From: Psammoneis japonica
Taxonomy: Eukaryota
Assembly: GCA_008632985.1 (NCBI GenBank)
Contig: QPGO01000059.1
Span: 372,001 to 430,902, forward strand
DNA length: 58,902 nucleotides
Direction of reading: 5' to 3'
The notes below the pieces were generated by a model. That model had not been told where the DNA came from, did no database searches, and saw nothing but the letters and a program-made list of their open reading frames with translations. This document shows, piece by piece, positions 875 through 58,902 of the stretch (within the stretch, counting starts at the first letter, position 1; each line of letters opens with the position of its first letter). The position numbers and the translations under genes were made by a program.

Positions 875-3800
875 CTAATCGAAATGTCTTGAACGCGTGT
901 ATTGCCACAAAGCTGCTCTCTCCGCGAATTTCCCTGACGACAACGCCAGCTGGTCCAAGCCCTCTTCAAGCAATGAAGTAGAACTGTGACGAAAACTGAT
1001 GTCAAGACGTTTCCCAATCATTAGACGGTTACCATTCTCATCTGTCAAATCACTAGTCACGAGTCGATGGTATGTGCGTGAAAGTGGGTAGAGGAGATCC
1101 GGGTTTGTGCTTGGAAGTGGGGCCACATCATGTCGAAAGCTATCCATGGTAGGGTACGACCCCCACTCCAACAGACGCGTTTTGTTTCGAAGCAAGTTCC
1201 ATGAATAATCCGAATCGGTGGAAACGAAGATATGAAAGTCGGTATCTTGTAGGTTTTGTTGTACAGAAGCTTGTTTGAGAAGCTGTAAGACGACCTTCAG
1301 AGCATCATGACAGGCATATAGTGAACAACGATTCCTCGACGGGCGCAAGTACGGGAAACCCACAAGAATTGTGCCATCCGTGAAGTTGGACCCTCCTTCT
1401 ATACCAGGCATGATTTGTCCAAAGCTAGATTCGGCGGCTAAGCGAAGTCGTGTTGAAAACTCTGCGCCTCCCTGGCAAACTTGAGGAAAGTAAATAGACA
1501 CTCCTCCCGTACGTCGAATTCCACGCACACGATCAATGTCGTCAGGTGGATAGGCACGTCCTGAAACAAAGATTTCGAGGCACTCAACAGACGACTCATT
1601 TTTTCTAAGATGCTTGACTTGATATGTCGACTGGTGAATCGCTGCAATAAGACCCGTACTGTTTGAATCTACTTGCTCTGGGCGCTGCAATACTTCGTTG
1701 GTATCTGATGCCATTGGATAAGTTTCGTCATGGGTCCAAGAATTTGCTAGGTCAGTTTGTTTCGGAGCATTTTGAGTCGCCCCATATATGAACTTCATTC
1801 CATCCAGAGCTCGCCCATTCCGGATTGCGGCATACAGAGTAGAAACGTTGACATCGTACTCCGCAGCTGCGGCCCGTACACTCGGGAATTCTTCCAGAAT
1901 GTTCCCAGAGTCTTCCGATACAAGCAGCACACTGCGTTTTCTTCTCGGGGAACTTCTTCGCAAGAGCGCGTCCGACAATGAGGTTCCAGGGTCGCCAATG
2001 TAAGTCCCCAATCGCATCTCAAGGACTTTGTTGGATGCGAGAAGCAAGGCAGGATTTTCAGTAACCACGGCTGATGCGGTTCGGGTGCGTGCCTGCAAAG
2101 CCATCGACTTGGCTTCGTAGTCCAGGGCAGCCTGAATCATTTTCAACTTGGGCAAGAAAGATTTCTCGACGCTTTGGATCAGTGTTCTGGGAGATTTCTT
2201 TACCAATTCACGCACCTGGCTTTTTGAGAGTAGCAGCTGTTCTGTAAAGAAACGGAGTTTAGGTTCGAGACCACGCTTCCAACTAGCGGTAAGGATTTGC
2301 GGGTATCGCACGACCATTTCGCCTAGATCTTTCTTATCCAAGCCAAAGCCTTCCATAATGGCTCGAACTTTCATTTTCAGGTTGTTGTGGAGTGAGAGAC
2401 CCATTATGGAAGGGGAAGTGACCACAATCTTAGAAACATGTTCGGAGGGAATTTTGAGTTCTTCCTTGAGAAACTTAAGTTTGGGACGAAGAGATTGGTC
2501 CACGCTGTATTGGAGGAGCGACGGCTGCTTCAGGACGGCTTTACGAAGATCTGGAGGACTCATTCCCACTGGTGGACAGCGACAATGACGTATAGGTGAG
2601 CAGTATTAGAAGCAGATAACTCGTACGTGAGAAAAGGCTGCCACTGAGAGCGACAAAGCCCCTTACCTTCGTCATAGAAGAAAGCCAACCGTAGCTCCAA
2701 TCCAGCATCTGCTCTATTGACAGACATACCAATGAGTGACGGCATTCTCAACAGCACCTTGCGCAGCTCAGAGGAAGAGAACCCAACTCTCGATTCTAAA
2801 GCATCTAGTGTTGATCTTATCTTTGATTCTGCCTTGTACGAGCTCAGACGTGTATGGGTCTGTGTAAGAGGACAAAGGAGAAGATCGATGTCAGTGCAAC
2901 ATAACATAGCCATGCACCGAATGCAATTTTTCCTACCTTTATCATTGAAAAGACTTCACTTGGCCGAATCTGGAGTCGTTTGCGTAGATACGTAAGGTCT
3001 GATTCTCGAAACGCGTCGCTCACTGGGCCATGATCGATTAGTTCCCAACTTGGCTCTGTGTCACAACAAACAAGGCTTGGAAACGCGTCCAGAACAATTG
3101 AAATCTGTTCCCAACTAACCCCAAGACTGTGGAGCAAAGCCATTGTCCATACATCCGATGCTGTAGCCCCCGTCAAATGCACGTCAAGCTCAGCTCGTGC
3201 TTCTTCAAACAGTTCAAAAGGCAACTCAACATTTTGATAGAAGAACAGAATGGACGGCTTCATCGCATCGTCGTGATGGATCGATAGAAGCTGTGGGATA
3301 ACTCGGATAGCATCCGTTGCTTGTTGGACTGTGAAGCCAGCACCATATCCCATACTTGATAGCCGAGGCCCTAAGACAAACGAGAAAAAACAAGCAAAAG
3401 GTAAGAATCAAAACGCAAAGGGAGGCTGCGCTTGGAATTGAGTCCGATCAACTTACAGTCAATGGTACAAAAATCAGTTTTCTTCTTCCTTGTCTTTTTC
3501 TGTTTGGTTCTTTCGTGTATTATTTCTTCAGGTGGTGGCTGTGGTGAAAGTAAGAATTGGACACGTTCTTCAACATCGTCATAATCGTAGAGACAAAGCT
3601 GGGGAAAGTTTGCAAGGACACGACGCGCTGCAGCATAATCCATGGTCAACCCTTGCGGTAATAGGGACGCTGATTTGTCCCCGCGTGTCAAGAGATCCAT
3701 GATGCGATCATAATTTCTCTTTACGGTTGCTTGTGTATGAACTAAAAACCGTCGCTTCCCAACGCGGTCGTCCAGCATGGCTGCAATCTGTTCTTGTCCA

Positions 3801-4576
3801 GCAACAGGAATGGCACTTCCCATTGTGATTTCTTGATTGCGGCGCCGGGATGAGGATGCCATCCGCTGTCCACCATTCGACCCTGCAAGGGATGATAAGA
3901 ATAAAAGCGTTTCGTACGCTGTTCTAGTGTGCTCGCTTGTTACCTCCTGGAGCGTGACATTTGATATTTTGTAGTTTCCGTTTGCCGTGTTTATTATTCC
4001 TCCTCGATAGGCTGTGCCCTCGAGTGGACCGCCACCAGACACAATGAATCGATGAATTTCTGCTTCGCCCACTTGAAAGCAAGCTTCAGGCAACTGGACC
4101 ATTTTTAAATTTGAAAATTCCGCCAAGGCGTCATCTAGAAACTGAAAGGATGCAACAACCTCATCGCAATCGTCATCAGGACTGCAAAACAAATTCGATG
4201 CTGTGCCATTCCAATAAAACGACAATCTTCCCCTTCGCGGACGATACACAACATGTCTTTGAAACAGATGTGAATATCTTAGGCATAGAGCCTCTTTCGA
4301 ATCATCCATGTTGCCTGCTGTTCCGTCCGTTTCTTGCTGAGATCGTTTCTTTTTCTTCGATCTATCCATTTCTGTTGTACGTTTTCTCTCTTTCTTTTTT
4401 GTTCGTGGCCTCGTTTGTTCGTCATGACTGCGTGTAGCAAAACAGGGTGGAAGTGCTGACTTTTTTGTTTTAACGATTGGCGCAAATGCACCAGTGTAAA
4501 ACGTCGGCGACAGACATGCGAGGTGAAGGGCAAGCACGCTCCAACAAAAGCCGAGACTTTGAAGCAACATTTTCAA
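875..4576 (-). CDS. Probably plastid-targeted mTERF-family protein with NUMOD1-like HTH and degenerate RNase H-like C-terminal domain; exons 4576-3457, 3370-2937, 2859-2667, 2568-875 (~1146 aa)
   Basis: Three GT-AG introns join four ORFs in frame (3441 nt). Signal peptide + GAFAP; many mTERF repeats (PSLLQYSVDQSLRPKLKFLKEEL, YPQILTASWKRGLEPKLRFF). Confidence 0.85.
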
Positions 4577-5033
4577 TGCGATGTTCAGCTCATGTAACTA
4601 CGTAAGAAGAAGGGCATTGAATGAGGAGAAGTTCAGTTCATATTCAGCTTCAACACTTCCTCTGTGGCCTCACATCGTCTCACAAAAAAGTCAAAAGCTA
4701 AAAACAAAAGATCGGCTTCATTACGTATTGACTTTAGGCGTATCAACTGTCTCAGGATTTTTGCTCGAGCGATAGATAGATAGATCGTCACAAAGATCCT
4801 TGGACCATAATGTCGATGCCTTGGCTACTATTTAACCTTTCGATTTTATCAGTATGCTACTCAAAACACACATCTCTCCGCCAGAGTTTGCTTGTGCTCC
4901 GCAGTGTGTTTTTCACGCGACGCAAGGGTGGTCCTGATCTCCATTCTATTTTGACGGAGCAGCTCAGCCGAGAGAGACTAAAGTCCAGAATCACTTGCAG
5001 GAATTTTCTTTGGACCAGAAGAGTGACATATAA

Positions 5034-6212
5034 TCATCTTTTGCCGACACATTTGTTTGCTTGATTACAACGAGCTGATTCGCACTCTTCATCAATGGTA
5101 CACTTGAATCCCAGGCTCCAGCCAGCAATTCCGATTGGAAACGTGCCGTTGGAATTGAGACGTGACAGTTGCTCAGCATAAACGCCAGCCCCATGAACAC
5201 CAATCAAGGTTAAACCGCCAGCCCATTTATCAGAAGGAACATAGTATGATTCGTCAGGGCGAAAGTAAACTACATTGTCCAGGTCTTCTCCGAGAACTAT
5301 GGCATGTCCCAGTTGACCCAAGTCTCCAGTTGGGTCGTACAGGAACGGAACAGGATCATATCTGATCTCTTCATTGCTATTCACAATGGTATTAATGAAT
5401 CGATACATGCGACTCTCATCGAGCGGATCGCACGTGCCCTTCATTGTTGGCGGCTGTCCAAAGGAAATCACGGCGGGCTTCAAATCGTTCATGTATACCG
5501 CAGCTATTTGGGCCACAGCCCCACCTTGGCTCGAACCTGTCATTATCACCTCACACGATTTGCACTTTGCAACGCAGTTTCGAATCTCGTCCTCCACTTC
5601 ATGTCGAAAGGAAGGATTGGCATACGCGTTGCGATAACCCTGACGGGCAGGACAGCAGTTTGTATGATTTGTTGCGGCACAAACATCCTCAGCGATTCCA
5701 GGGTCTAGGTTTTGTGCCCAATCCATTAATGAAGCTTTTGTCTCTCGAAAAGCGGCAAAGCACGTGTTGTTCCTTTGAATGACAAGTGCTGCATCGGGTT
5801 CGTCCACAAACAAAAGTGCGTCAGGGAACTTGGGCAGTACCTCGTTTCCTTTGACAGCGTAAGATAGTTCTGCAGCTAGCAAACTCATTGAAACAAACTT
5901 TCTATCCAATTCATCAATAGCTGGTGGGATACGAAACGGCGATGGTGGCTTAGTAGGAGGTGTGCTAGGCTGCGAAGTAGGAGCCAGTGTGTTGGATGTA
6001 GTCTTAGGAGTATTCTCGTCATTGACTAGGGGTTGCTTTGTCTTTCCGCCACCAACAGAAGAAATGACAACGATAGGGATGGTGACGGCAATCACGACGA
6101 CAAGAAGTACTAGCGCACCCAACAGCAGCCTTGTTCGCCGTCGATGGGTTTTCGGTCCCGCATTCTCGGTCGACGAGAATTCTTCTTTCGTATCGGATGA
6201 GTTTTCCGTCAT
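5034..6212 (-). CDS. Class 3 lipase / alpha-beta hydrolase with N-terminal membrane anchor
   Basis: TM segment, P/T-rich linker, AAFR lid region, GSSQGG nucleophile elbow, SFGQP, DPVP motif. Confidence 0.8.
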   Translation of the reverse strand: MTENSSDTKEEFSSTENAGPKTHRRRTRLLLGALVLLVVVIAVTIPIVVISSVGGGKTKQPLVNDENTPKTTSNTLAPTSQPSTPPTKPPSPFRIPPAIDELDRKFVSMSLLAAELSYAVKGNEVLPKFPDALLFVDEPDAALVIQRNNTCFAAFRETKASLMDWAQNLDPGIAEDVCAATNHTNCCPARQGYRNAYANPSFRHEVEDEIRNCVAKCKSCEVIMTGSSQGGAVAQIAAVYMNDLKPAVISFGQPPTMKGTCDPLDESRMYRFINTIVNSNEEIRYDPVPFLYDPTGDLGQLGHAIVLGEDLDNVVYFRPDESYYVPSDKWAGGLTLIGVHGAGVYAEQLSRLNSNGTFPIGIAGWSLGFKCTIDEECESARCNQANKCVGKR

Positions 6213-6837
6213 TTAATGCGATGTAGTGGCCGTGGATGTCAACGCCAATCTACCTAGAGCGTTCCGAAGCCTGAAACCAAGGCTCTTACAACTACAGCAA
6301 CGCCGTCTTCGTTTCCCTTGCATGTTCGATACATGAGGGATGAATGAGACGAGGTGTGGGGTGTCAGGCGTTGGGAATCCGTCGTGGTTTTGGCTTTTGC
6401 CTTTTGCGTAGCGGGAGGCGGGACTTGAGTGATCAAAAAGGTCGCGGACACGATTGCGCAGTCCCGTTTCTTGAGTCGTGCATGTGAAAAGCACTCTATT
6501 TTAGAGAAGCCATAGGGCCTACCGGTACACGGTAGAGGTGTTACTCGTAAAGGGTGATTGTAATACTCACTAGTATACTATCAGCGAAAGAACAATGTGC
6601 TTCGCTTCCCATTTAGACTCTAAAAGAATCGTGGAGTCAGTTGGCAAGGCCAATGAGCCAAAACATGCACCGTAACTCACATCGATTGGAAAGGAAACTA
6701 CGCGCGGTGATCTATCTGCCCTACAGTACTTTATGTACACAGCCCACAATTACCATAGACTTCTCTTGGCTTTCGAACCCCAGAGGCCAAAAAGCAAAAA
6801 AAATTCCCATACCCGACGAAGTGCCTAGTCGGTAGTA

Positions 6838-7638
6838 TCACCCTTCGTCCTGCAACTCTTTGTTCAAGCGTTCAATGCGATCCCTCATTTTTGCAAAATG
6901 AAACGTCCCCCGATTTCCATGAAACGGATCCTGAAACTTTTTCCCGTCCAAAAACAAGTGCTCTTCACAGTTCAGCATGAAGCACTCGGCAAACTCCTGA
7001 AAACTGGACGTTATGAGACTACCAAGCGCTTCTGGAAGCTTCCCACTCTGTGCTAATTCCACCATGTCTATCACAGCAATTCGCAAAGTTTCGTGACGAA
7101 TACAGTGGTTATAGTTCTTCGATTCACTCGAGTATTTTCCCTGATCCTCAAAGCCTGGCTCGTTGAGGTACGGCGATTCATTCATCAAAGATCTGATGCT
7201 CAGCAAGATACTCCCAATCGTGTGAACCGGTGACCAGCTCGGCCCATTCCATGTACCGAGTATACTTAGACAAACCTTGCCATTCTTGTACAAGTTTGGG
7301 TTGAACCTAACGACGCCGCCACCGGTCGTTTGCAGCGTCACACGAGGTGCGTGGTGAGGGTAGTCATTTGGAAACTCAAAACGAAATCGAAAGAATCCAA
7401 ACTCGTATGGAGTATCTTGCGGTCCAATGATGAGCCCATGACAAACGTTGACTTTTTCTTCGTCAGGAATGGCAAAGATACCGTCAACTGGATCTTTGTA
7501 TAGACGCTGAAGATCCGTCCGAATCCTCTTGATACACGCTTTAGACGGGTTCTGGAATCTCAGAACATCGTCGTCCTTTTTGCTTCCTTTCTCCGTGCCG
7601 CTGATCTTTGCGTCTTGATTCGGTGACTCCTCTGCCAT
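6838..7638 (-). CDS. UBE2Z: Ubiquitin-conjugating enzyme E2, UBE2Z-like
   Basis: GPQDTPYEFGFFRF, RFNPNLYKNGKVCLSILGTW active-site Cys, PYLNEPG, IRHETLRIAV; first ATG at 7638. Confidence 0.85.
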   Translation of the reverse strand: MAEESPNQDAKISGTEKGSKKDDDVLRFQNPSKACIKRIRTDLQRLYKDPVDGIFAIPDEEKVNVCHGLIIGPQDTPYEFGFFRFRFEFPNDYPHHAPRVTLQTTGGGVVRFNPNLYKNGKVCLSILGTWNGPSWSPVHTIGSILLSIRSLMNESPYLNEPGFEDQGKYSSESKNYNHCIRHETLRIAVIDMVELAQSGKLPEALGSLITSSFQEFAECFMLNCEEHLFLDGKKFQDPFHGNRGTFHFAKMRDRIERLNKELQDEG

Positions 7639-40419: not shown

Positions 40420-42050
40420 AATGAAGGACGTCCGAACACATGTTTCGCAGTTGTGGGGGTCCGTTCAAGAGTGCATTGAACACGTTGAGATCAAGATGGC
40501 TTTAAAAATCAGTGTAGATTTGCATTGTTGAGCACCATTTTAGCTCCGACGCGACCAATCGCCGCCCCCAACACTGCAATGGCACCACACAACCTGCTTT
40601 CCCACCGTTGTCGGTTTGTCGCGTTCTCACCCATGCTTGTCACTGCAGCTCGAAACATGAGCGCAGGAAAGATGAAAATGAGTGAAGTTCCAAACACAGC
40701 ACCAGACATGCTCGCCACGAACGTCAGGTCCTGAACATTTGGCGCAAGGCGGCAACAAAAGACACCAACCCCACCGAAAGGTTTCTGAGGAGTGAATCGG
40801 TTCGTCGTTTCTCCGGGACGTTTGACAAATCAAGAAATCCATCACAAGTTCCAACAAACAAGAGAGGACAGGAGAACACCAGGGAGAGCGCCATGGCAAA
40901 CTGACTGAACTGATGAGAGCATCGTTTGTTGCGCAGTCATTCAGTGTCAACCCCTGCGTTGCTGATCCAAAGGTTGAGAATCCCAGGACGTCACCAGTGC
41001 GTACATTGCCATTGATGTGCCAAACGATGCACTCACGACTCGGTTGAAGCAGCTCAGCGTGTTGTTCTTTAATTCCCTGAAAAAGTTGGGGGCATTGAAA
41101 TGAGCAATGTACGCTGTGCTCAGCATGCAAATGAGAATCAATGAGTTTGGACTCAACGCGCCTGTTGCACCTGTTGAACCAAATGCCGGTTGCACAGTGG
41201 TTGGCAAGTCTGCCAAGAATCGCCCCCCTGGTGTCGCATGGGAACCATCAAAGAATCGAGTGACGACTGCGATCGCGGTGCATGTCATTCCAGATGTGCC
41301 AAGCAAAGAAAATGGAGCCAACAACGACAGATTCTTCACTGGACACAATGGCAAGAGTGCAGCTCCTGTCAATCCAAGCAAGGCCCTTGATTTCGTGACA
41401 TTGATTCCAGTTGCAGCCAGCAGATCCTTGAATGTGTGAGAAAGCACCATGCTGTGCATCAAATTTCCAGCAAAGCAGTCCAGACACGAGGGTGCAGCCA
41501 CAATCCAAGCTGTGCGTGTCCCTCTGGTCTTTTGTCCCAGGCATCAGCGTAAGAGTTGGCTCCTGTGAGCAAGCATGCTCATGCAATCAAGGAAAATGTG
41601 CATGCAGAAATGAAACCCATGACTGCAATGAGGATGATTGCAGGAATGAGTGCACTCGGGGCATCACCGAAAGCGGTGACACCAGCCGGCAAACTCAGAA
41701 TTCCAGCCCCAATGATGCTCTTGACCAGATTGAACATTTCGTTTGGAATGGCAGCTGTTCCTTCTGAAATGTTCTCTGCTGCCATGGCTCCTCCACCTGC
41801 CATGCGTGTCACACTGTTGCTTTCCTTCTTTTTGTGATTTGACCTTGTTGCCAAACAAGCACTCTGCTCCCACCTGCTTGGAGAGCCACATTGACGAGGC
41901 AACGCTGCATCATTGAAACAATGTGTCGGGGCAATGTGTGCAAAGAAAGCAGCAACACGCCAATGGCATCCGTTTTGCAACGTCTCATGGTCGCTCTTCT
42001 TGTTGGCACAATCGCTGATCGCTGAGCGGCAGGAAATTGGCGCAGAAAAA
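39990..42050. other. TpA-depleted hypermutated domain 5 (CpG largely retained)
   Basis: About ten TA left in ~2 kb, mostly TTA/TAA, while many CG survive. Confidence 0.8.
40509..41990 (-). pseudogene. Amino acid transporter (Aa_trans/SLC38-like) pseudogene
   Basis: FNLVKSIIGAGILSLPAG, KNLSLLAPFSLLG, LSTAYIAHFNAP, GAVFGTSLIFIFPALMF spread over several frames; Tyr->Cys/His changes. Confidence 0.85.
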
Positions 42051-44634: not shown

Positions 44635-45370
44635 AACGAATAACAGTAGAGAAACGTTGTTTCTTGGATATTTTTGTAATGGAATGGAGTGTAAGTCGGC
44701 GTAATTGTACGTAGTAATTATTGGGTTCCAACCTGTGAACAACGAATTCGCGAGAAAGAGGACGTCTGACAGACAACCACTCTAGATCTCTAGCTAGAGG
44801 CTATGGGGATGGTCCTACTTCAAACTTACCTACCTGCTGTCGAGACCGTACTACTCTTGGAATTTTCGGAATCCGCTGGCTGATCCAATCAGAATCTGTC
44901 AACACTTATCAACTTGGCGCATGCATACAGTTGCAAGTTGTCATACTGTAATAGATCGTCGCCATGTCAAATGTTCCCGGTGTCGCTAGCTCTCTTGCCG
45001 TGGGGGTTTGTCTGCTACTGATTATGTACAGTTTACGGTACATCATCTTACTTGCAGGATTTCTTCTTTTTGCCTTTGCATACTACTCTGGAGAGATTGA
45101 AAGGGAGAAGGAAGAAGAAGAATTATCAAGGCTTGCAGCGAGGAATGCGTTTCGCGTACCACGCCACCCCACCTATTCTAGCACTTATGCCGCCACGCGA
45201 ATCACAGCAATCTGGGGGAAGTCTCCAGCCAGCTGCTGGCTGAAAAAAGTCTGCTCGTCAGTGCGTTTGGGGGTTTTGCAAGTACAATTTTTACGTACGC
45301 NACATGTGGGCGTGCATTAAAATAGGTCTGGGGGTCAAAAACTCCAAATCGCGACCCCCAAGTGTTCCAT

Positions 45371-45690
45371 ACTACAAATTGCAAAACAATTGCGCGATAC
45401 ACGTGCCCGAAGGTCGAATATCGTTGCCCGAAGCAACATTCTTCCTTCGCGCAGATGTCCATTCTACATTGTACATGGTATTGAAAATCTTATTGTAGTC
45501 GCATGAGTCGTTGAAGTAATTTCATCAATGACCTCTGTGGTACTGTGCTACGTGATCTACACAAATCGGACATTCTCGAATGCTGGTATATTTTCTACGG
45601 TCTCTACGTGCGCGAAGCTCGAATTTCGTGCCCGAAGCAACAATCACCCTTCGGGCACGTGTATCGCGCAATTGTTCAGCAATTCGTAGT
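45371..45690. mobile_element. Foldback/inverted-repeat element fragment
   Basis: 43-bp near-perfect IR actacaaattgcaaaacaattgcgcgatacacgtgcccgaagg (45371-45413) vs 45648-45690; internal tgcccgaag repeats. Confidence 0.6.
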
Positions 45691-45758
45691 AGTTTCAAAG
45701 TCATCGAAAATATCCAAAAACACTTCTAGCACTTGCCGCCACGCGAATCACAGCAATC

Positions 45759-45966
45759 TGGGGGAAGTCTCCAGCCAGCTGCTGGCTGAAAAAAGTCTGC
45801 TCGTCAGTGCGTTTGGGGGTTTTGCAAGTACAATTTTTACGTACGCTAAAGAAAACGAGTCTGTCCAGCGTTCACCAAAACCCCCTAACGCACAGATCGA
45901 CAGACTCTTTCAGTACAAATCCTACATAAAATTCTTCAGCCAGCAGCTGGCTGGAGACTTCCCCCA
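45759..45966. mobile_element. 208-bp MITE with 32-bp perfect TIRs, TG...CA ends and AATC target-site duplication
   Basis: tgggggaagtctccagccagctgctggctgaa (45759-45790) / ttcagccagcagctggctggagacttccccca (45935-45966); aatc at 45755-45758 and 45967-45970. Confidence 0.85.
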
Positions 45967-46259
45967 AATCCAAGAAACAACCACGACCATCTCAAGCACA
46001 AGCACGCCACGAGGGAGGATGCAGAACTGGAGGTGGCAAGAATGAAGCTCTGCGGCTACGAAGGCAGTGATCGATTGAACGTGTACTACAATAGGGAATA
46101 TGACGGCTGGTATGTTGGGCGAAGCAAAATGGGATACTAGGTTGTTCTGCCATGAGCCCACTTTTGTGATGTCCGCCGTATCTTATGTTAGTAGCCAAAC
46201 ATTGCGTCTTAAATTCTAATTCTTTCTTGTATCTACTGGCCGCCTGCTTGGTACTTAGG

Positions 46260-47390: not shown

Positions 47391-48199
47391 TGTTTTAACA
47401 AACTTCGCTGATGGTGCTTTGGATAGACAACAGCTCCAACGAACGCCATTGCGATGCAGAATTTTGATTTTCGTGCCGAGCGGTTGGATTGGTGGCAGCT
47501 TTCTACGTAATATTTGTGTAGAAACTTACATACGAGAGACGTCGTATCTCTCTATCTAGGTACAGTATCTACTCTATAGGTATGTACAGAGTATCCTTCA
47601 GAGTCTGTCTGTGTCCCGTTTGAATCTCTCCGAGACTTTTTTTGGAACAGTTGTTGAGTTTATTTTTTGAAAAAGCATCTCACATGAATTGCCAATCACC
47701 AACGGTTTTCCTCTTTCCTTGCCATTTTTCAGCTCAGCACCGGAGTGCAGCTCACAACCTAGAGGATAACTCACTTGTTTTTTGTGCTGCTCCACTTTTT
47801 TAAGTGGCGCTGCTTTGACACATCATTCTTTGAACAGCGCCACAGAGAGAGCTCATCGTTGACCGCGATGGATCCCCTGACAAGCAAATGCTTGAAACCA
47901 TCATCTGTGGACAAGTGTCTGGCAAATTCTCTATCTAAGACCTTCACACCAAAAAAGCTTGCATCATGCACCCATGGTTGCATCACCTTCACATCCTGTC
48001 CAGCCAACACTGAATGCTGCCACCTTCTGTGCTCAAGAAAGAGCACCCGGGGCACGGCATCTGCTGCGAGACCTCCATCATGAACAAAGCACTCAATGCT
48101 CTGATGAAAAATGAACAAACCACCCCCCAATGTGTAAAGTGAGTGGCTGTCACAAGTCATTCTTGCTCCTGAGCCTCATCAGAAAGATGTCGCGGACAT

Positions 48200-49400
48200 C
48201 AACGAATTCATGTGGTGACTCTGCATCAGCCCCCCACATCAACCTCAATCGAGTGACAAAGAAGCAGTCTCACACTGCACCCCTTGCTGTGATGATGGCT
48301 GCCATGGAGCATGGTTTCAGCTTGGCTTGGCTTCACATTTTTGCCTGCTTGGTGCATTCAGTGGACATTGTCAAATCAAGATGGGGGGCACGGCAAGCCA
48401 CCAAAACAGCACTCTCTTGCAGCTCCACAAGGGGGTGTGGGGAAAGTGCCGACACATGCTGTCATGCCCTTTGGAGTCATGAACAAGCCCACCACATGTG
48501 TCACATGGTGTGCAGCTTGAAGAACAACTGGGAAAATGAAGCCAAAGTCATGGGCACCACACTTGATGACAGCGGCAGCTCCGCCACAAACATTGACGAC
48601 AATTTTGGATTTGTGGAAGAAGGGTGTGACACAGGCCTGCAACATGTCAAGGCAATCCTTTGTGTTGCCCATGCCTCTGCAACCTGTCTTGGAAACTCAA
48701 GAAACATCTGTTCTTCCCAAAGCTGGTCAAACTTGTGGGTCAGAATCTTGCAAAACTTGGAAACCTTCCAGCACACTCCACACTTTGCAGACTGACTCAA
48801 GCACATCCATGAGCTGGTCAAGAATCATGACTTCAGTCACAAGATCAATGATGCCAAATGGGCTGATGCCCTCAACAGCAAGTTTGAAGACATCAAATCT
48901 GCCACATTGTCTGAGCCACTGCTCCATCAAGTTGACGGCAAAAAAAGTGACCACACCTGCATGCCGACTTTTCAGGGTGGGGGGTGGGGCATGCACTGCT
49001 CAAGCCAGGAGACACAAAGCATCATTGGCAGCTGTGGAAAGAGAAGATGCAGGTTGGAAGTGTGAACTCAACATGCCCCCATCTGGCCTGCACCTCTTTC
49101 CATGCACATTTGGCTCACAATGGTGCAAAGGCATCAAGCGATGCCTCCACTCCTGTGTTGGAGAGGGAGCAGCCCTTAGATGGGGCGATTCACAAAAGTC
49201 CTGCACAGCTCATGGCCATTTGCCAACATCAAAGACTGCCATGGGCTGCATTGGATTGCATGCCATAAAGGCTGCAATCCTGCCATTGTCTCATTGCAAA
49301 TGGAGCTGGCATCATGGCAGTTCACTGTCACCCATCAACCCACTGGCATTCTCATCAATGCCAACTGCTTCTCTCAATGCAGCCAAGAAGTTGACTTGGT
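48200..49400 (+). mobile_element. Decayed Ty3/Gypsy pol: reverse transcriptase + RNase H
   Basis: LNRVTK, TKTA, VMPFGVMN, NIDD, KLKK; LFPCTFGSQWCKG..LHSCVGEG, DCHGLHWI...LQMEL...HQP...NANCFSQ (resembles D..L.WI...HRP...DADYFSR). Confidence 0.8.
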
Positions 49401-49836
49401 CCCATGACCCACTGCCAGCTGAGCATGTCTCCACAGCACAAGAGCAACTGGCACCAGATCTTCCAGCAGCCACACAGGTCAAACCCAAGAATGTGCCCCA
49501 CTTTTGTTGTGATGCAAAATCTGCCAAGTCAGAGAATGTTGCCACCACAGTCCCCACAAACCTGTCCAATCCAAGTGAAGTGGAAGAAGCACCACTCGGA
49601 AAACCTGCTGAGCCAATTGCTCTCCACCCATGTTTCAGCACCATGAAATCATCATTTCAACTGGTGAACCACAATTTGGCACTGCATTGTTTCTCATTCA
49701 GCAACTTCTTCTCATCATGCAAAGACCATCAGATTCATTGACAGTTGTCATTGCTGCCAACTGTGACATGTTTAGTCAAAAAATGTTGTGCAAGACATCA
49801 GACAAGACCCTGTCATCTTGTCATCAGCAGCCCATC

Positions 49837-50268
49837 TCCTGAGTGAACCACATCAAGTGCAGCACCACACAGGAGCTTGAAGGGAGCCATGTGACGCCAC
49901 CAGATCCAGCCAGTGCATCTTCTCAGCTGCAATTTGCTCAGACTCAAGCAACCATCATTTGTGAATTGCAGCACTGGTGGTGCCACCTTGGTGCTTTGCA
50001 CTGCAAGCCTCCTCCATGTTCAAGCACACTGTCTTGTCTCAATTTTGCAAATCCTGAATGAACCACATCAAGTGCAGCACCACACAGGAGCTTGAAGGGA
50101 GCCATGTGACGCCACCAGATCCAGCCAGTGCATCTTCTCAGCTGCAATTTGCTCAGACTCAAGCAACCATCATTTGTGAATTGCGCTGGTGGCACCACCT
50201 TGGTGCTTTGCACTGCAAGCCTCCTCCATGTTCAAGCGCACTGTCTTGTCTCAATTTTACAAATCCTG
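49837..50268. repeat. Tandem duplication, 215-bp unit
   Basis: tgaaccacatcaagtgc...aaatcctg present twice, near identical. Confidence 0.95.
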
Positions 50269-51149
50269 CATGACAGAAGGATGGCACATCACAGAGGATC
50301 ACATCAAATGCACAACAACAGGTGATGCTGTTGATCACTCCACCTCATTCATGATTGGACTTTGCACAGGTGTCACAGGGGAGAAAGTTTCTGTTGACAT
50401 CCTTTGACCAACCCCAACAAAACCATCCATTGTGCTGCTTGACACCCTTGCAAACCCTTCAACTCCAAAAGCTTTGGGACATCTGCTCTGCCTGATGCCA
50501 CAAATGCTGAAGCCAATGATGACAAGTTTGCCCTGGAGACTGTCAATCCCATCCAACCACCATCCCTGCTTGAACTGTGATGGTGGGACAGCCAATCAAG
50601 AAGGGTCCCTGACCCTCCAATCTGTGCAGTGTGGAGGTGTGTGGTGTGGGTCATCCAGCTCCAGCCACTGGCTCAGTCAACAACAATGCACATTCAGTCA
50701 CCTGTTTGACACCCTTTGTCATCAAGATGAAGAATCAAAACCCAAATTTGATGCATCTCTGCTTGTGAGTGTGTGTCTTGTTGGGATTTGGAGAGTGCAA
50801 CCTCACATGCAAGTCATGTGCAGACACATGTCACCTCAATTTGTTGGCAAGTGGCACACTGAAAAAGCAGCCGCACAACTGACTGACACACAGCTGTCAT
50901 CGGTCAAGCTCATTGACACATTCACAGGAAAAAGCTCCAGCCACAACTGCTCAAGCACATTTCCCAATGGCTCAACATCAACCCATCTTCCAAGTCATTG
51001 AACTTGGACCCAGGAACACTGTCAAGATCCTGTGACAAAAAGCATGATGGGCATGCACCAATCTCATCTGACCTGTCCTCAACCAACAAAAAGACAACTT
51101 GCAGAAGATGCACTTCTGCTGTGAGCAACCCACACATGCAGGAAATGTC

Positions 51150-52450
51150 ATCATCAACAATGATGCACTCATTCTCCACAAATCAGTTGACTCTGCAGGA
51201 AATTTTGCAAAGCTTTGAATCACACCAGCCTCTCTTCAGAATGTTGTCTTTGTTGCACTCAACACAAAACCCACAGGCAGTCATTTCAGCATGTGCTGCA
51301 CTTTCCATGACCTTGTCAAACTCCAGCACTGTTGACCCAACATGTGTGAGCACATCACAGACTGGATCAGCAAATGCCAAGGATGCACACTGGCCAGTGC
51401 GTGACACCAGAAGAAATGTGAGCTCGTGCACTCCTTTTTGGTTGATGAAGTGCTCAAACTCATCCATGTGGATGTGCAGCACAATGTTGGACATCAACAG
51501 GGGTTTCATCAAGGTGAAAAATGTCACATGGATGTGGTTGATGGCCTGAGCACATTTGCAGCATCCAAGAAAGTCCAAGGCAAAGTCAATGCCAACAGTT
51601 TCAGAAGAGCCATCATGAAAATTCTCCGGAGCCATGGCCTCTGCCATGCTGTCATCATCAACAAAAACTCCAAGTTCTGTGGAGCATTCATTCAGGCTGT
51701 GTCTCCCTGGCAGGACTTGACCTCCATCAAACATCAGGAGGCAACTGTGACCTGGTGTTGACCAAATGTTGTCACATGCTCCTCAACAAATCCCTCCAAA
51801 TGTTCTGCACTGAACAAGACTCAGTCCACACTGGTGCCAAAGGTGTCCACCTTGCAGCACATGCATGGAGAAGTGCTGCCCCAGTTGTTGGCACTGACTC
51901 ACCAAGCTGACTCCCAGAGCTGCTGTTGGTTGCAACCATCAGTTCCCATTCAAACTGTGCCAATTCAAAGCATGTCAATCTTCAGCCAATGTGACAAGCA
52001 GTTGCACAATCTCCTCTCCAAATGTCAAGAAGCACTCAAAATCCTCATCCAAGAGCATCAAGCCATGTGCCATGAGCACATCAGCAGCAATCACCTGGAT
52101 CCACTGGTGCACTCTGTGTTGGACACTTTGTTTTAGTTCAACAAGCCATCAAATCAGATGCCCAACACAGACAAATCAACAAAATTGTGTTTGACCACAC
52201 TGGCCCATGGAAAATCATTGAAAGGATTCCAGGAGCCTTGCATTGCATCCATCGCTGCAGCAGGACCAAAGCAGAGGACAAAAGGCATGCTTCTCACATT
52301 TCCCCATGCCCTCTGGAGCCAGCTCCTTTCCCTCCTTTTGCAGGACCAGACAACTCCTGTGGACACATCAACAGAGCAATCAAAAAGAAGCACCCTTTTC
52401 TGGAAGCTGGCATTGACTCCCACATGCCACTCCAACCCTGAAAACTTGCT
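51150..52450 (+). mobile_element. Decayed Ty3/Gypsy integrase
   Basis: Zinc-finger-like region (GSHF...PNMCEHITDWISKCQGC), IHVD...VVDGLSTFA...HGLCHAVIINKNSKF core, HTGPWKII GPY/F motif. Confidence 0.75.
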
Positions 52451-54951
52451 GATCTGAGCAGTGCACCACCATCCCAGTCCTTGCCATGTCTCTGGCAAAC
52501 ATGGCGTGCATTGGATCTGCTGTGCACTTTCCAACACTTGCTGATTGTGATGACAAAGAATTTGATGGGGTGCACACTGAAGATGAGCTCTTGCCAGCAG
52601 CAATGGATCATTGCAAACCTTCATTGAATCCTGTTTTCATTGAGACACTTGAAGGCATCAAGTCCATGATTGGACTGTTGCCTGCACACTGCACAGCAAA
52701 ACTGCAAACTGTCCCAGTTGGTGCCAAATCCAAATCACAGCTCATGTCTTGCATTGTCTGGAGCAAGCACGCAGAGCATTCTTCATCTGCAAATGACCGA
52801 GATTTCAAATTTTTCACAAAACTTGTCAAAACACAACAACAACGGCAACCACAAATGCAACGTGCTCCATCAATGACCACAAACTCACCATGACAATGAC
52901 ATGTGTTGATGGCTTGCAATCAACTTCACATGCACATGCCTTGCTGTGCTTTGAAATTGATTGAGTGCTGTGAAAACAGCTGAAATGGTGGTGTTCAATG
53001 TTTTGCCCATCACTTTTTGACCACACAAGTCAACAACAAGCCCGCTGTGCTCTCGCGTGTCAATTCTGCCATGCATGAGTTCACAAGATGTGATGTTGAT
53101 TGTTGCAGCTCTGGAAGGCAACACAGTTGAGAAAACAGTGACCACAGAGTGGTCGCCATGGTGGGGTGGTTTCCAGGAATTTCTGGCTGTGGCAAACCAA
53201 TGGCAAATTCACACCAAACTGAGTCATGTGCCCACCATTGCCAGTGGCAGGGCTGGCAGCAACAACAAATCATGACTTGGCAGGAAAAACAACTGAGCTT
53301 CTCAGAGGGCAAAATTTGTGTTGAACTCTTCATGCAACATCCACACAATGTCCAGCTCAATGCTTTGAACCAGACTTTTTGGAAAGAATGTCACAAACTC
53401 AATGGACAATTTGCCCTCCATGACAATTTTCATCTGCTCAAAACACCTCCCAACAAGTGCCAGCAAAAAGCACCTCATCATCTTCTTGCAATGGGCCCAT
53501 GTTGTTGATCATGCAGATGTGTGCCTCCACTGCAGACCCTTCAATTTTGCCATGATCAATGGCCAGCAGATGATGCATGGTGTCAAGCAAGTGTCCTCCA
53601 AAGAATGAGCATCTTGTCAACATTGTCTCAGCAATGCAAGAACAAACCCCCAAGCAAGCAGCCATCCCATCCACAATTCTCACATCACATGAATGCACAG
53701 CAACAAACTGACCATTGGGGCCCCACCACAGAAGCCCACGCATCTGCTGTCCTTGCTCATGAGTGTGTGCACAACTGTTGAATGTTGAGCTGTCACAAGC
53801 CATTGCACTTGAAAGCTGAGCTCTCAAACAATTGGTGAGCTCTGAATGAACTCCCACATCTCTCAAAATCTTGTCTTTCTCAAATTTCATTTCGTCAGTC
53901 AAATTCAGTGCTGATTTGGTGCCAAAACCATGCCCCAGCAAGCCCAAAATGGGTGCCCCAAATTTTTTTTTCTTTTTCAATCAATGCCCTTCAGGTTTTT
54001 GTGACCATGCTTTTCCTCCTGGCCTGTCACATCCTTTTTCAATGTCCCCATGGTGCTCTCTCTGCTCTTCTTTTTAACACTGTTTGGGAGGCATTGTGAA
54101 AATTTTGTGGGGAAAAGGGCAGAAATGAAACAGTGCTGTTTGCAAATGTGCCAATTTGTGGAAAAACGCTCAAATGGCTTGAGGGCAAAGAGTGCAGCTG
54201 AGAGCTGCCTCACCATGCAAACAATGCAACAATGGCCAAAATGCCGCCATTCATTGAAGGCAATGGAGGAGGTGGAGAGGCATCCAGGCCTGTTCCAGCT
54301 CCAGGTGCTCCGCTTTTCATCACGCTAGATTTTCTGTGCAGTTTTCAGCACCAGACATTTTTGTCTCCACCCGGCAGAGCTTGCACTTTTTGGCTTTTTG
54401 TGAACATCAATTGTTTGAATGACGCAACATGTTTGTCATGTCAGTGCTCATCTGCAACAACTGAGGTGCATGTTGTGTCACAGGAAGAATCGTGTCAGTT
54501 GGCATTTAATGTTTTTCTGGTGATGCGCAGAACAATGCTGACTTCTGTGAACACGTGCCATCCACCCAACACACACACCAGCCATGATGCAGCACACCAC
54601 TGTCACCACTCCACAACCCCCTCTTCTGCTCCTTTCATTTCAAAGTTGTGTCATTGTTGTCACAACACGATTGCAGCTCTAAGGAGTGGCTGTTGTTGCA
54701 GACAACACCATCTCTTCATGTTCCCTTGTTTCAAATTCGGCAAGTTGATTCATCGTGTTTTTTTTGCACGTCACCGTGCGCGTGCATTTTTCTGGTTGCT
54801 TCTCACGTCTCGTTTTATGGTTGTTTCGCACCAGGGCCTTCGGAATTTCTACAAAACTCAAGTGTTCCCCCAAACATTCTCCAAGTGACAGTTGCCACTG
54901 GAACAAACTTGTCTTGGTTTGTTTTCACTGTGATGCTTGCTGTTTGCACTT

Positions 54952-55180
54952 TTCAGCATCTGGAGCTGCCTCAGAGGCTGCCTCTGTTCATCCGCATCAC
55001 TTTTGCGGTGACTGATGTTGGCCCCATCTCTGGAGTGCATTTGTCATGCAAGCGGGAGTGCAGCTTGCTGTTTGATGCTTTCCAGCATCTGGAATTGCCT
55101 TGGAGGCTGCCTCTGTTCATCTGTGTCACTTTTGCGGTGGCTGATGTTGGCCCCCTCTCTGGAGTGCATTTGTCGTGCAC
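54952..55180. repeat. Direct repeat, ~100-bp unit, ~129-bp period
   Basis: cagcatctgga...gaggctgcctctgttcatc...ctctggagtgcatttgtc present twice. Confidence 0.9.
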
Positions 55181-56329
55181 AAACAGGAGTGCAAAAGCAA
55201 TGCAATTGCCATGGACATGTTGGCCAAAGCAGCCTCCCAGCAGCATCCCATTGGCGGCAGTTCCCCTCAAGCAAACGATGACTCTTCCAGCACATTGAAG
55301 GTTTCCTTTTGCATCCAGCATTGCATCAAGGCACTCAAGGAACATTGCCCGCCACAGGGCAAAGCCAAAACTTGGTGCACTGTGCCTCTTCAAGATGCAG
55401 TTGATCCCCTTGCGTGCCCTCAAGGTCTTGCAGATTTGAGCGTCTTGACCACGGAAGATTGTGGAGCCAAGAAGATGAGCCCTCTCTTTCATGTTCTTCA
55501 TCACAAGAATGGCTTCAATGGGTTCAACAGTGCCAAAACACGGAACATGTTCCGCAACACTGTTGTTGGCTGGTTTTGTAAAAAAAATTTAATGCTGAGA
55601 ATCGACTGCAACCAAACCAATGCATCAAGGACAAGAGCCAGCACCTCTTGATGTTGGTTGTGGTGCCATCAGGAACGTCAATGAGGGATGCCATGAAGGA
55701 CAAGCAAAACATTGCCGCTGTTTTGATGCACCGTGTCATGACAAACATTGGCCTGCTTGTTGATTGCATCCTCCGTGTGACAGAGTCTCAGGTTGTGGAG
55801 GTTGGGATGGGCAATGAGAGACTGTTGATTGCACCATCGAGTCAAGGTGTTTGTCCTTTTTTGACTGGACTTGCCCAAGCCATTTGCTGTGTTGTTGTCA
55901 AGAGATGGATGCACACCTTCATTGTCAGAAGACATTGAAGTCTCATCACATGGGAGAGATGGGTTTGAGGACATCATGGACACCATGAGCAATCGTTCCA
56001 ACCTGGCGAATGTCCACAAGCACTGGAGTGGGGTCATCTCATGCAGAATGACAGAGGCAACACTGGTTGCCCTGTGTGCAAAGGAGACGGTTGCTCCAAT
56101 GGCTCTGCAATTGTTTTGGCATTGTGCCTCGCTCCAGCCCAGAGTGTCAGAATGTCGCAACAGAGATTTGCAGCAATGAAGACTGTTGGGAGCAACCACT
56201 CAATGAAGGAGGATGCATTGCTGATCATTCGTGCAATGCCAAGCACCAATTCCACAAGGCATCTTTGGTCAACATTCAAAACCTGGAAACGTGCGATGAC
56301 AAAAAGTTGACCAAAGATTTGAGGATCCA

Positions 56330-58700
56330 TTGTGGCTGCCTTTTGACAATGTCATGCACAAAAGTTGGTGGCAAATTAAGTCTCCAAAGGGAATGAAGAA
56401 CCATTTTGAAATGTTGGCTTTGAAGGGGTTGCATGTCAAGCTCCACTGTGAAACAAGACATCCCGTTTTATCTGCAAAACAACACTGGGGTTCAATCTGC
56501 AACCATCGCTCTGTTCAAAACGAAATCGCTCAGAGGAAGCAGGTGGATGAAAAGCTGCGTCGAAAACCATGCATCAGCCATAAGAAGTTGAAGAAGGCCA
56601 ATGTGGACGACAGCAACGATTGTGTTTTTCATGACAAGTGTCACAAAAGGGAGAAGCTTGAACAGTCAGACGATGACATGGAGGAAGATCCCCACATTGC
56701 CAAACTTCCCACCAACGTAAAATGCAAAGTGCTCACAAGTTGCATGATTGGCTGCCGGAAGGTTTTCTCATTTGGGCCATGTGACCCCAATGAGACACTG
56801 CCATCCGAGGCATTGTTTGACATTGTTGCAGGTTGGTGGCACAACCATGTGTTGCAGATTGACACTGGTGGTGAGTGCAAAGGCTGTCAGTGTCCGCCGG
56901 ACAAGCGGTGCAAGCCTCTCAAGCCACAACAATGCTCCGAGTCAGTGGAGGCCATCACCAAAGACAAGCACATCTTTGAAGTTCACTTCCCCACCGGACC
57001 AAGCAGGAAGGACTGCAGCAAAGAGCTGCTTGCTCACCTTGCTGATTGGTGCAAGGCAGCTCCAGGACTTGCATGGCACAAGTTTTGCAGAAGGATTCAT
57101 TGCCATTGTCACATGGATCACGCCAGTGTCTGTGATGCAAGGATGAAAGAGTTCGAGGAGGAAAAGGAAGAGGGAAAGGAGGGCACTGAAGCAATGGATG
57201 ACCTGCAAAAGGCCAAGGCTGGCACTGCAAGGTTGCAACTGCGAGACAAAAACCAGGAGGAGGAAGATGGGGCCATGGATCAATCAACTGAGGAAGAGGA
57301 GGAAGATGATGGTGTGCAAGATGAAATCCAGGAGAAGCAAGATCCAGGTTGGTCCATGGATGAATCGACTGAGGACGAGGAGGAAGATGATGACCAGGAA
57401 GAAGTTTCTGAAGCCAAGGCTGCAGAAGACTTGGCACTTGGAACACAAAGGTGGAGAAGAGGGAGAGAGTGGGAGACGCTGCATGCAGACGTGCAAAACA
57501 GCTCATGAAAGAACAACTGGAGCACAAAAGGATGAGGATCTCATTGGCCTTTGCAGCTCCAGGCCAAAACCAAGGGCAAAAGGAGCCACTTCATGGCATT
57601 GGTTGAGCAAAGAGCAGCAACACCAAGAAGAAAGGGATCAAGTTGAGTGTGAGCACAAAGACACTCAAGTGATGTTGTGGGCTAAAAAACTCATTTGGAT
57701 TGATCCAAGTTCATGGAACAGCAGGCATCAGCATCCTTGCAATTCCGAAGGAGCTGTTCCTCACTTGTTTGGTTTTTTGCTTTGAAGGAAAAAACGAGGG
57801 CGTCATGTTGTGGGAAAATTGGTTTGATGTGCGATGCAATGAAATGAATGGCCATCCCATGAACATGTGTGCGGCCTCATCACACATGCAAACACAAACC
57901 AAACGTTCCCTGCCAACTCAATCAAAAATGCAGAAACAAGATTTAGGACAAGGTGGAGTCAATTTGCAACCCACCACAGATTGCCAAACTGAAGAGATTG
58001 GCTGAAGCAGAGACTCAAAACCTTCCACCTGTTGGGCAGGGAGCTGATTTCATTGGCCACAGCTTGGAGGGGAACCGTCCTGTGCATGTAACCCTGGATT
58101 GGGCTGAGTGCAATTTCAAGTTTCGGTTTGTAGATGTGTGGAAAGATTTGAAAGAATTGAAGCCATCGGATGGTTGTCACTCCTTGCCGGAAGGAAACGT
58201 GTTGATGCCATTGAACAGTGACTTGCCAATGAGCGCCCACCTGTGAAATTCCTGCAAGGACAAAATGACACTTGCATTTTTTCCTCCCTGGCCAGTGTTC
58301 TTGATTGTGCTGGCAACGTGGAAATGAGAGACTGCATTGCTTCTCACATTCAAACATCTGCCAACTGTGCCGACACTGACAACAAGTGCACGTTGTTTGC
58401 AAAGCACATGTTGAATGGTTGTTTGAAGGGAAAATTCCTGCCTGCAAACTCAAACATCAAGTTTTGTGGCAGTGTGGATTGAACGATTTCCTTGGAAGCG
58501 GGTGGTGAATTTGATGTGACAACCTGGCAATGATGACTTCATGACTTTGTGCCATCTTGTGAACAACCACTGCATTGCCTTGCACCGTGGTTGGATCTTT
58601 GATTCCAACACCCTTTTGCATTGCCAGCAAAGGACATTGGATGCTTGAACTGTTGTCTTGGGAACAAGGAACATGAGGTGGAGTGCGTGGCAAAAAAGCA
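56330..58700 (+). pseudogene. Decayed large ORF with acidic tract and C-terminal Cys-His-Asp (papain-like?) module
   Basis: E/D-rich region at 57150-57420; FLQGQNDTCIFSSLASVL ... NNHCIALHRGWIFDSN across frames. Confidence 0.4.
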
Positions 58701-58902
58701 TCTGCAACAAGTGTTCATGGTGTGCCAGTTTGAGCTTCCTGGGGTGGTGCAGCAGCAGTTGTGTGGAAAAAGGAAAGCTTTTGTGTTGGATGGTTAATCT
58801 GGTTGCACAATGTAAAGTGACAATCACAGTGTTTGTTTGCTTTCCCATTGCCATTTTGTTGATCAGACTCGTCACTGTCACTGTCCCCTGCTGCACTCTT
58901 GC

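Follow-up and report, generated by a model that had tools for sequence, protein, structure and literature searches.

A derived tandem duplication in a TpA- and CpG-erased retrotransposon remnant of the diatom Psammoneis japonica, probably followed by further CpG decay

The window, by which I mean the whole stretch of DNA analysed here, comprises 58,902 nucleotides of Psammoneis japonica (GenBank assembly GCA_008632985.1, contig QPGO01000059.1, positions 372,001 to 430,902 of the forward strand), and all positions below are counted from its first letter. Its genes are closely packed, those for mTERF, lipase, E2, sulfatase, ABC1 and ribosomal L2 being among them, and it is interrupted by islands, at 12-14.5, 18-20, 31-32.5, 37-38, 40-42 and 47.94-58.9 kb, from which the dinucleotide TA has been almost completely erased. 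In these islands CG is scarce as well, and TG and CA have roughly doubled. Within these islands, which have sharp borders, the observed/expected ratio of TA is 0.00-0.11, against 0.4-0.85 elsewhere in the window. Such a confinement to particular regions, with an ordinary remainder, is also found in TpA hypermutation of the kind described in the alga Bigelowiella natans. In the island at the end of the window, which holds the tandem pair that is the subject of this study (Table 1), the ratios per kb are 0.00-0.09 for TA, 0.05-0.41 for CG and 1.6-2.3 for TG and CA; the part from 47940 to 54000 contains 6 TA and 38 CG, against 1473 TG and CA steps taken together.

Table 1. Features of the window referred to in the text (positions of the window, forward-strand numbering)
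Feature	Position	Strand	Remarks
Amino-acid transporter pseudogene	40524-41773	-	in a separate TA-erased island; second polarity test
TA/CG-erased island with the tandem pair	47940-58902	.	to window end; last dense TA at 47936
Degenerate pol, Ty3/gypsy-type retrotransposon	48126-53772	+	stops and frameshifts throughout; tblastn of P0129-P0137
Longest open frame of the island	48521-49738	+	406 codons; remnant of the RT connection/RNase H part of pol
Tandem copy 1	49837-50051	+	215 nt; 0 TA, 1 CG
Tandem copy 2	50052-50263	+	212 nt; 1 TA, 3 CG
Unit-edge difference	49843 G / 50058 A	+	transition outside the TG/CA-TA/CG class
CAT (His) common to both copies	49888-49890 and 50103-50105	+	
CG common to both copies	49895-49896, partner 50110-50111	+	
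3-bp insertion in copy 1	49968-49970	+	GCA repeated
CA versus CG difference	49973 A / 50185 G	+	
TG/CA double difference	49981-49982 TG / 50193-50194 CA	+	
CA versus CG difference	50026 A / 50238 G	+	
TG versus TA difference	50046-50047 TG / 50258-50259 TA	+	copy 2 context T-TA-C

The pair lies in a dead pol gene. Seven full-length pol proteins align collinearly with the plus strand of the island over their residues 20-1659 (tblastn), and three of them, P0129, P0131 and P0133, carry RT_RNaseH_2/RT_RNaseH and Integrase_H2C2 domains, with RVT_1 also recognised in P0129 and P0133 (Pfam). The domain order of the relatives, RVT_1, RT_RNaseH_2/RT_RNaseH, Integrase_H2C2, is that of a pol of the Ty3/gypsy type. 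The 406-codon frame exceeds in length all frames of 300 Markov simulations. A word-based homologue search with this frame gave no relative; a full phmmer search gave eight weak ones (E 1e-9 to 7e-4), all with RT_RNaseH domains, and a profile made of these eight recovered the full-length polyproteins. Pfam had found no match in 48-59 kb (scans of 134 of the window's 157 frames with 100 codons or more, then of 26 island frames with E values allowed up to 10) and was silent until unmutated relatives were used, which illustrates how TA-erased islands conceal transposon genes from domain searches. With only some 190 nt of island upstream of pol, this copy of the element looks truncated, and self-comparison revealed no long direct repeat pair flanking 48.1-53.8 kb, so that the LTRs and gag of a complete element are not seen here. 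Viral contigs scanned with the island frames yielded no relative, hence no sign of a viral origin. Seven related elements on metagenome contigs are ordinary in composition, with observed/expected ratios of 0.54-0.91 for TA and 0.68-1.30 for CG, and the depletion therefore belongs to this copy and not to the family. The closest relative of the 406-codon frame, P0121, is a public prediction of 230 amino acids that lacks tyrosine and abounds in Cys, His and Trp, and in these respects it resembles a prediction from another TA-erased copy of the same element family.

The surroundings of pol contain two repeats of their own. In the remainder of the island, at 53969-58902, the contigs of a public run (Logan contigs; X1 below) reach a depth of 1160-4400, except in one bin (660), and many of them are divergent, which marks this part as a high-copy repeat family. 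An open frame of 402 codons at 56300-57505, with an acidic tail, has no Pfam, viral or other match, and a search of the ESM Atlas with one unexplained host frame gave no usable match. Outside the island, at 45176-45969, lies a short repeat family. Its direct copies, 45176-45300 and 45724-45846, align over 125 columns with 0 mismatches and 2 gap columns (98.4% identity by blastn), inverted pieces lie nearby, and a single N stands at 45301. The summed X1 contig depth of the family is 3300-7200, against about 51 next door, while its TA and CG contents are ordinary (observed/expected 0.68 and 1.01). Provided that depth is a measure of copy number here, being present in many copies is not by itself enough to bring about TA erasure.

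The two copies of the unit stand head to tail, with 215 nt from one start to the next and an identity of 95.6% over 225 columns (repeat search, self-comparison and MAFFT); the output of Tandem Repeats Finder lacks the 49837-50263 pair. The match between them extends to 50273 by way of TCCTGnnTGA, a short and imperfectly conserved direct repeat that the units carry at their ends and that makes the edge difference ambiguous. The copies are separated by six substituted bases, all of them transitions, and by one 3-bp indel, and the TA of copy 2 is the sole TA of the pair as well as of the interval 50001-51000. A first-pass annotation of the window had reported this 215-bp pair, and both the pair and every difference it listed are confirmed to the base. 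It had further characterised the copies as differing essentially only at TA/CG sites. As a description this is true, since five of the six substituted bases and four of the five events fall in the TG/CA-versus-TA/CG class, but as a sign of enrichment it is weak. Bases inside TG or CA make up 51% of copy 1 and 48% of copy 2, and any transition in this half of the unit produces TA or CG. When six random transitions were placed on copy 1 in 200,000 trials, at least five of the six bases fell in the class with a probability of 0.127, at least one TG<>CA double arose with a probability of 0.035, and a double together with at least three singles with a probability of 0.012 (0.002 with transversions allowed at 1 in 3). 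The enrichment of the class is thus real but only modestly beyond chance, the pair alone is statistically weak, and its three single differences fit ordinary transitions in a sequence that is half TG and CA.

The place of the unit within pol is well defined. Copy 2 corresponds to residues 615-684 of P0129, after one 1-nt frameshift that both copies have in common, and frame-corrected copy 2 with the sequence downstream of it matches residues 615-732 at 41% identity (E 2e-28). These residues belong to a linker, the RNase H domain of P0129 ending at residue 433 and the integrase zinc-binding domain starting at residue 1002. The stretch of the window between its matches to residues 580 and 664 of P0129 should measure 252 nt but measures 469, and the excess of 217 equals one unit. 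In all six related pol proteins aligned here the unit is present once, so that the adjacent head-to-tail copies represent a derived tandem duplication, which arose when the gene was already dead. Metagenome contigs had no match to an exact 24-mer of the unit.

In order to establish the direction of change in the element as a whole, the conserved columns of the pol alignment can be used, 253 of 504 of which differ from the relatives. Among the differences explained by a single step, TA>TG/CA is seen 36 times (+1 ambiguous) and TG/CA>TA not once, while CG>TG/CA is seen 43 times (+1) and TG/CA>CG once; the rest are 32 other transitions, 70 transversions and 68 differences needing two or more steps. 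Twenty conserved tyrosine columns now read His in 13 cases, Cys in 5 and Phe in 2, and none has remained Tyr. The amino-acid transporter pseudogene, whose named relatives are all from diatoms, points the same way: 77 of its 303 conserved columns differ, with 13 (+1) TA>TG/CA against 0 in reverse and 6 (+1) CG>TG/CA against 1 in reverse, and its frame is broken by stops, one of them a TGA at a codon that reads Arg in 40 of 40 relatives. A:T>G:C transitions at TpA, the mark of hypermutation of the B. natans kind, are hence found both at the level of the element and in the pseudogene, and the presence of the latter in an erased island means that host-derived DNA is affected too. The first-pass annotation had named TG as the ancestral and TA as the derived state, the polarity of repeat-induced point mutation (RIP), as the finding that would count against it. 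This was not found in outgroup copies, and in the conserved columns of neither pol nor the pseudogene is there a single case of it. Selection against TA and CG, as opposed to mutation, was considered and ruled out, in view of the conserved Tyr and Arg residues that have been replaced and of the many stops and frameshifts in the gene.

The two losses do not always go together. In the transporter pseudogene TA is nearly erased (observed/expected 0.06-0.11) and CG merely mildly depleted (0.53-0.70), showing that they can be uncoupled. The pol island has, moreover, a strand asymmetry from 47940 to 54000, with 838 CA against 635 TG, more C than G and more A than T, where the other islands are symmetric. 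Conserved Arg codons of pol have become Gln or His in 17 cases against Cys or stop in 4, and conserved Tyr codons His in 13 against Cys in 5. Detectable single-step events number 18:19 for TA>CA versus TA>TG and 36:8 for CG>CA versus CG>TG, the latter count being biased by what is visible at the protein level.

The first-pass annotation had proposed to polarise each change in the pair by means of other copies, and the related pol proteins, which here are 25-41% identical over 101-118 residues (one further relative 21% over 92), do so for the two CG sites. The column of 49973/50185 has Arg in four of the six relatives, Lys in one and Gln in one; copy 2 reads CGC (Arg) and copy 1 CAG-CAC. Judged from this column, CGC is clearly the ancestral state, which would have become CAC in copy 1, the GCA being repeated afterwards. 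The insertion itself is derived, as its GCA codon is absent from copy 2 and from every relative. In the column of 50026/50238 the relatives have Arg in two of six, Gln in two, Lys in one and Glu in one, and none of the six has His; the CGC of copy 2 is probably ancestral and the CAC of copy 1 derived, with two of the six relatives behind it. Copy 2 retains CGC (Arg) at both places, 50184-50186 and 50237-50239. The six relatives polarise neither the TG/TA nor the TG/CA site. At the former they have Leu three times and Gly, Ile and Val, compatible with neither Tyr nor Cys, and the DNA of two distant relatives (L001 and L002), with AGA for Arg and TTA in the Leu column, leaves the TA site unpolarised as well. 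At the latter they have Ser four times, Cys and Arg once each and Tyr never, by which an ancestral CGC or TGC would be slightly favoured over TAC. The difference may, as the first-pass annotation had it, have passed through one CG or TA that was resolved on opposite strands. The unit-edge column, with Leu in five of six, is not polarised by the relatives either.

By my own count of sites, which takes three CpG positions in each of two copies, 2 of the 6 CpG site-copies were lost after the duplication, and of some 404 other base-copies 1 changed (Fisher P = 0.0005). This would put CpG decay after the duplication at roughly 100 times the rate of other sites, with a wide error. The greater part of the erasure is older. 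The copies have 51-55 TG/CA steps in common, as well as a CAT (His) codon where four of the six relatives have Tyr. This codon records a TA>CA change older than the duplication and, together with the common steps, it indicates that most of the erasure predates the duplication.

I therefore set out the following history, which I consider likely and which draws on sequence comparison: a derived duplication of about 212 nt in a dead pol, mostly after the erasure, with CpG decay then continuing in copy 1. The element lies inside a domain in which transitions have converted almost all TpA, and the majority of CpG, to TpG or CpA. Most of this erasure of TpA and CpG would have come first and the duplication second, probably by slippage or unequal exchange at the imperfect direct repeat. 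After the duplication, copy 1 would have lost two CpGs (CGC to CAC) and then gained its GCA slippage insert; one dinucleotide would have become TG in copy 1 and CA in copy 2 by way of a short-lived CG or TA; and one TG/TA difference, in either direction, as well as one ordinary transition at the unit edge would have been added. The CpG losses could be ascribed to deamination of methylated cytosine in silenced transposon DNA, and the TpA losses to a context-specific A:T>G:C process as in B. natans. The pair is, in this sense, a small dated sample in which the order was erasure, duplication and continued CpG loss, and it illustrates what an internal control of such size can and cannot prove.

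The first-pass annotation had gone further, in that it took both erasure of TpA and erasure of CpG to have continued after the duplication, by which the TG/TA site would be a TA lost in copy 1. For CG this is borne out by the two losses in copy 1, as polarised by the outgroups, but for TA the pair does not demonstrate it, and I give the full claim about an even chance. The context of the TA speaks in its favour. Surviving TAs of the islands stand in Y-TA-R in 28 of 53 cases, against 278 of 1542 (18%) in the background (P = 2e-8), and in R-TA-Y in only 3 of 53, which points to a process that, on the edited strand, prefers those TAs whose next base is a pyrimidine; the surviving CGs have no flank bias. 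With its context T-TA-C, the TA of copy 2 is such a favoured target, and copy 1 shows the expected product, TGC. The scarcity of TA from 47940 to 54000 speaks for it too: near equilibrium, 6 TA against 1473 TG and CA would require TA to be lost about 250 times as fast as it is gained from TG or CA (about 40 times for CG), the alternative being a recent sweep. The same equilibrium cuts the other way, since gains of TA then equal its losses; copy 2 may just as well have gained its TA from TG as copy 1 may have turned a TA into TG, and a single unpolarised site proves nothing. The pair has one such site, and its outgroup column (Leu, Gly, Ile or Val), like the DNA of L001 and L002, is of no help.

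Differences outside the pair are provided by X1. It may come from the same sample as the assembly, and the differences between the two may be alleles, strain differences or, less likely, errors. Over the island the X1 contigs are 98.9-99.8% identical to the assembly and equally TA-free, and in 48-52.6 kb they have a word depth of 58-84, compared with 48-51 at the neighbouring gene; two further runs, X2 and X3, have no cover of the island. The X1 contigs break off at 49873, which lies 30 bases beyond 49843, and begin anew at 50208, 30 bases short of 50238. An assembly by 31-letter words would break at just these places if the reads contain two copies with different letters at 49843 and 50238. 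In one X1 contig, whose depth of 24.7 is about half that of its surroundings, 48923 is linked to 54287 through 37 other letters; this contig may be an allele or paralogue without 5.4 kb of the element, the tandem pair included.

Between 48212 and 49873 (1.66 kb) X1 has 18 letters other than the assembly. Among the 16 of these 18 differences that are listed, there are three TG<>CA doubles (48627-8, 48698-9 and 49121-2), two TA<>TG/CA singles (49085 and 49177), two CG<>TG/CA singles (48936 and 49330), three other transitions, one transversion and a two-base change near a contig end. The TA<>TG/CA singles again favour continued erasure of TpA, though all four singles together are about what a transition divergence of 0.4-0.5% predicts for 401 TG/CA steps. 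The doubles are not: with 18 random changes in the same interval, three doubles occurred in none of 200,000 trials and two in 0.09%. At least three doubles, set against this chance expectation, mean that a CG or TA intermediate was rewritten within the time separating X1 from the assembly. They point to a very short-lived intermediate, CG or TA without telling which, and they are the strongest sign of a fast recent process, from outside the pair. Older paralogous pieces carry the same signature, with 13 TG<>CA doubles in about 350 columns between 13.2-13.5 kb and 52.8-53.2 kb, 16 in five older paralogous island pairs, 17 in six pairs when the tandem pair is included, and 0 in four background pairs. 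The contention that both mutation classes far exceed the background rate rests mainly on evidence from outside the pair, namely the X1 doubles and the ratio of 6 to 1473.

The contrary null, by which the hypermutation was over before the duplication and all differences of the pair are ordinary transitions that mostly created TA or CG, is improbable. It gains from the chance probability of 0.13 for five of six bases in the class, from the agreement of the four X1 singles with ordinary divergence, and from the three TA/CG states of the pair all lying in one copy, but, to judge from the Arg residues of the relatives, CG is clearly the ancestral state at one site and probably so at another, so that these are losses and not gains, and both the double of the pair (P = 0.035) and the three doubles of X1 speak against it. 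Very unlikely is a RIP-like process, in which the duplication itself triggered mutations in both copies. Transitions with a dinucleotide context in repeated, transposon-derived DNA would suit it; however, the direction is the opposite one, TA being destroyed rather than made, just 6 of 212 bases have changed, and the erased state was already common to both copies. Furthermore, 48-52.6 kb is fully erased at an X1 depth like that of the neighbouring gene, whereas the repeat of very high depth at 45.2-46 kb is not. That TA and CG were miscalled in the assembly, for instance through modified bases in long reads, and that the copies differ by consensus noise, is hardly credible, as the independent word-based X1 contigs are equally TA-free, have CA for TG no less often than TA or CG where they depart from the assembly, and agree at their ends with the copy-specific bases, and as the changes ruin conserved codons in a pattern that includes frameshifts and stops.

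The likely history given above, duplication in an erased pol followed by CpG decay in copy 1, can be set beside several known systems. CpG decays by deamination of 5-methylcytosine in methylated transposons, and diatom transposons are methylated. Like this process, the changes at the locus turn CG into TG or CA at an elevated rate per site, far above that of other sites (43 (+1) against 1 in pol, and the losses of copy 1), may pass through a CpG intermediate to give doubles, and leave surviving CG with no preference for flanking bases. The rate ratio estimated from the pair, about 100-fold with a wide error, is higher than that of mammals, which is roughly 10-fold. RIP, known from Neurospora and other ascomycetes, is likewise a transition hypermutation with a dinucleotide context that ruins transposons. 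It makes TpA from CpA by C>T transitions and so enriches TpA, where here TpA is removed, the polarity is opposite and TA is almost absent; and it needs duplicated DNA and a sexual cycle, where here a region with single-copy-like depth is erased. Editing of retroelements by deaminases, such as APOBEC on cDNA or ADAR, would agree with transitions that fit deamination of C and of A and with T as the preceding base, ADAR on double-stranded RNA preferring U before the edited A (as cited in 10.64898/2026.01.13.699255). Unlike in such editing, what separates the tandem copies, and likewise the alleles, came about in situ once the element had been integrated, and a pseudogene of a host gene is affected.

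The closest counterpart is B. natans, the sole subject of a TpA-specific report in the literature searched, in which no description of TpA hypermutation in diatoms was found (PMC4504042, retrieved as a candidate, matched only by the word 'Tpase'). In this alga, integrated DNA of giant viruses and virophages undergoes TpA hypermutation to TpG or CpA. Of the 231 new mutations in two such viral regions, 230 changed A to G or T to C at TpA; the rate was about 6e-7 per site per generation, compared with 3.5e-10 for the baseline, and an ADAT2-like (ADAT-like) adenine deaminase acting on DNA is proposed (Mettrop et al., bioRxiv 10.64898/2026.01.13.699255). As far as the available part of that preprint goes, the two systems have in common transitions at TpA to TpG or CpA, the confinement to silent foreign DNA, a long-term depletion of TpA with enrichment of CpA and TpG, and the possibility of a single-copy target; transposon-type Pfam families are enriched among the TpA-poor genes of B. 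natans, a likeness to the retrotransposon described here. They differ in the host, a chlorarachniophyte there and a diatom, hence a stramenopile, here; in the targets, which here are a retrotransposon and a host pseudogene; and in degree, the erasure of TA being near-complete here (observed/expected 0.00-0.05), against 0.45 in the virus region of B. natans. Strong CpG loss accompanies the loss of TA in the diatom, while the available part of the preprint reports none. Its rates, about 1000-fold above background, furthermore come from de novo mutations, whereas the process here is known from sequence comparison, with no polarised TA event in the pair.

It is possible, though I would put it forward with more doubt than confidence, that diatoms share the TpA-directed A:T>G:C editing of B. 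natans and that it is still active here, striking both repeats and single-copy remnants where they lie. Such editing would prefer TA followed by a pyrimidine and would work alongside, or through the same machinery as, a very fast CpG decay; new TA and CG would be rewritten within the time that separates alleles, and the TG/CA and TA/TG sites of the pair would be its latest footprints. If this is true, an old DNA-editing genome defence would be common to the stramenopile-alveolate-rhizarian group. A TpA-removing mutator, directed at repeats or at silent DNA, that, by the available part of the preprint, has so far been measured in one alga would become a widespread genome defence, with a diatom footprint that is near saturation and carries signs of recent activity, and it would be placed in a group where gene knock-outs are feasible and the enzyme could be sought.
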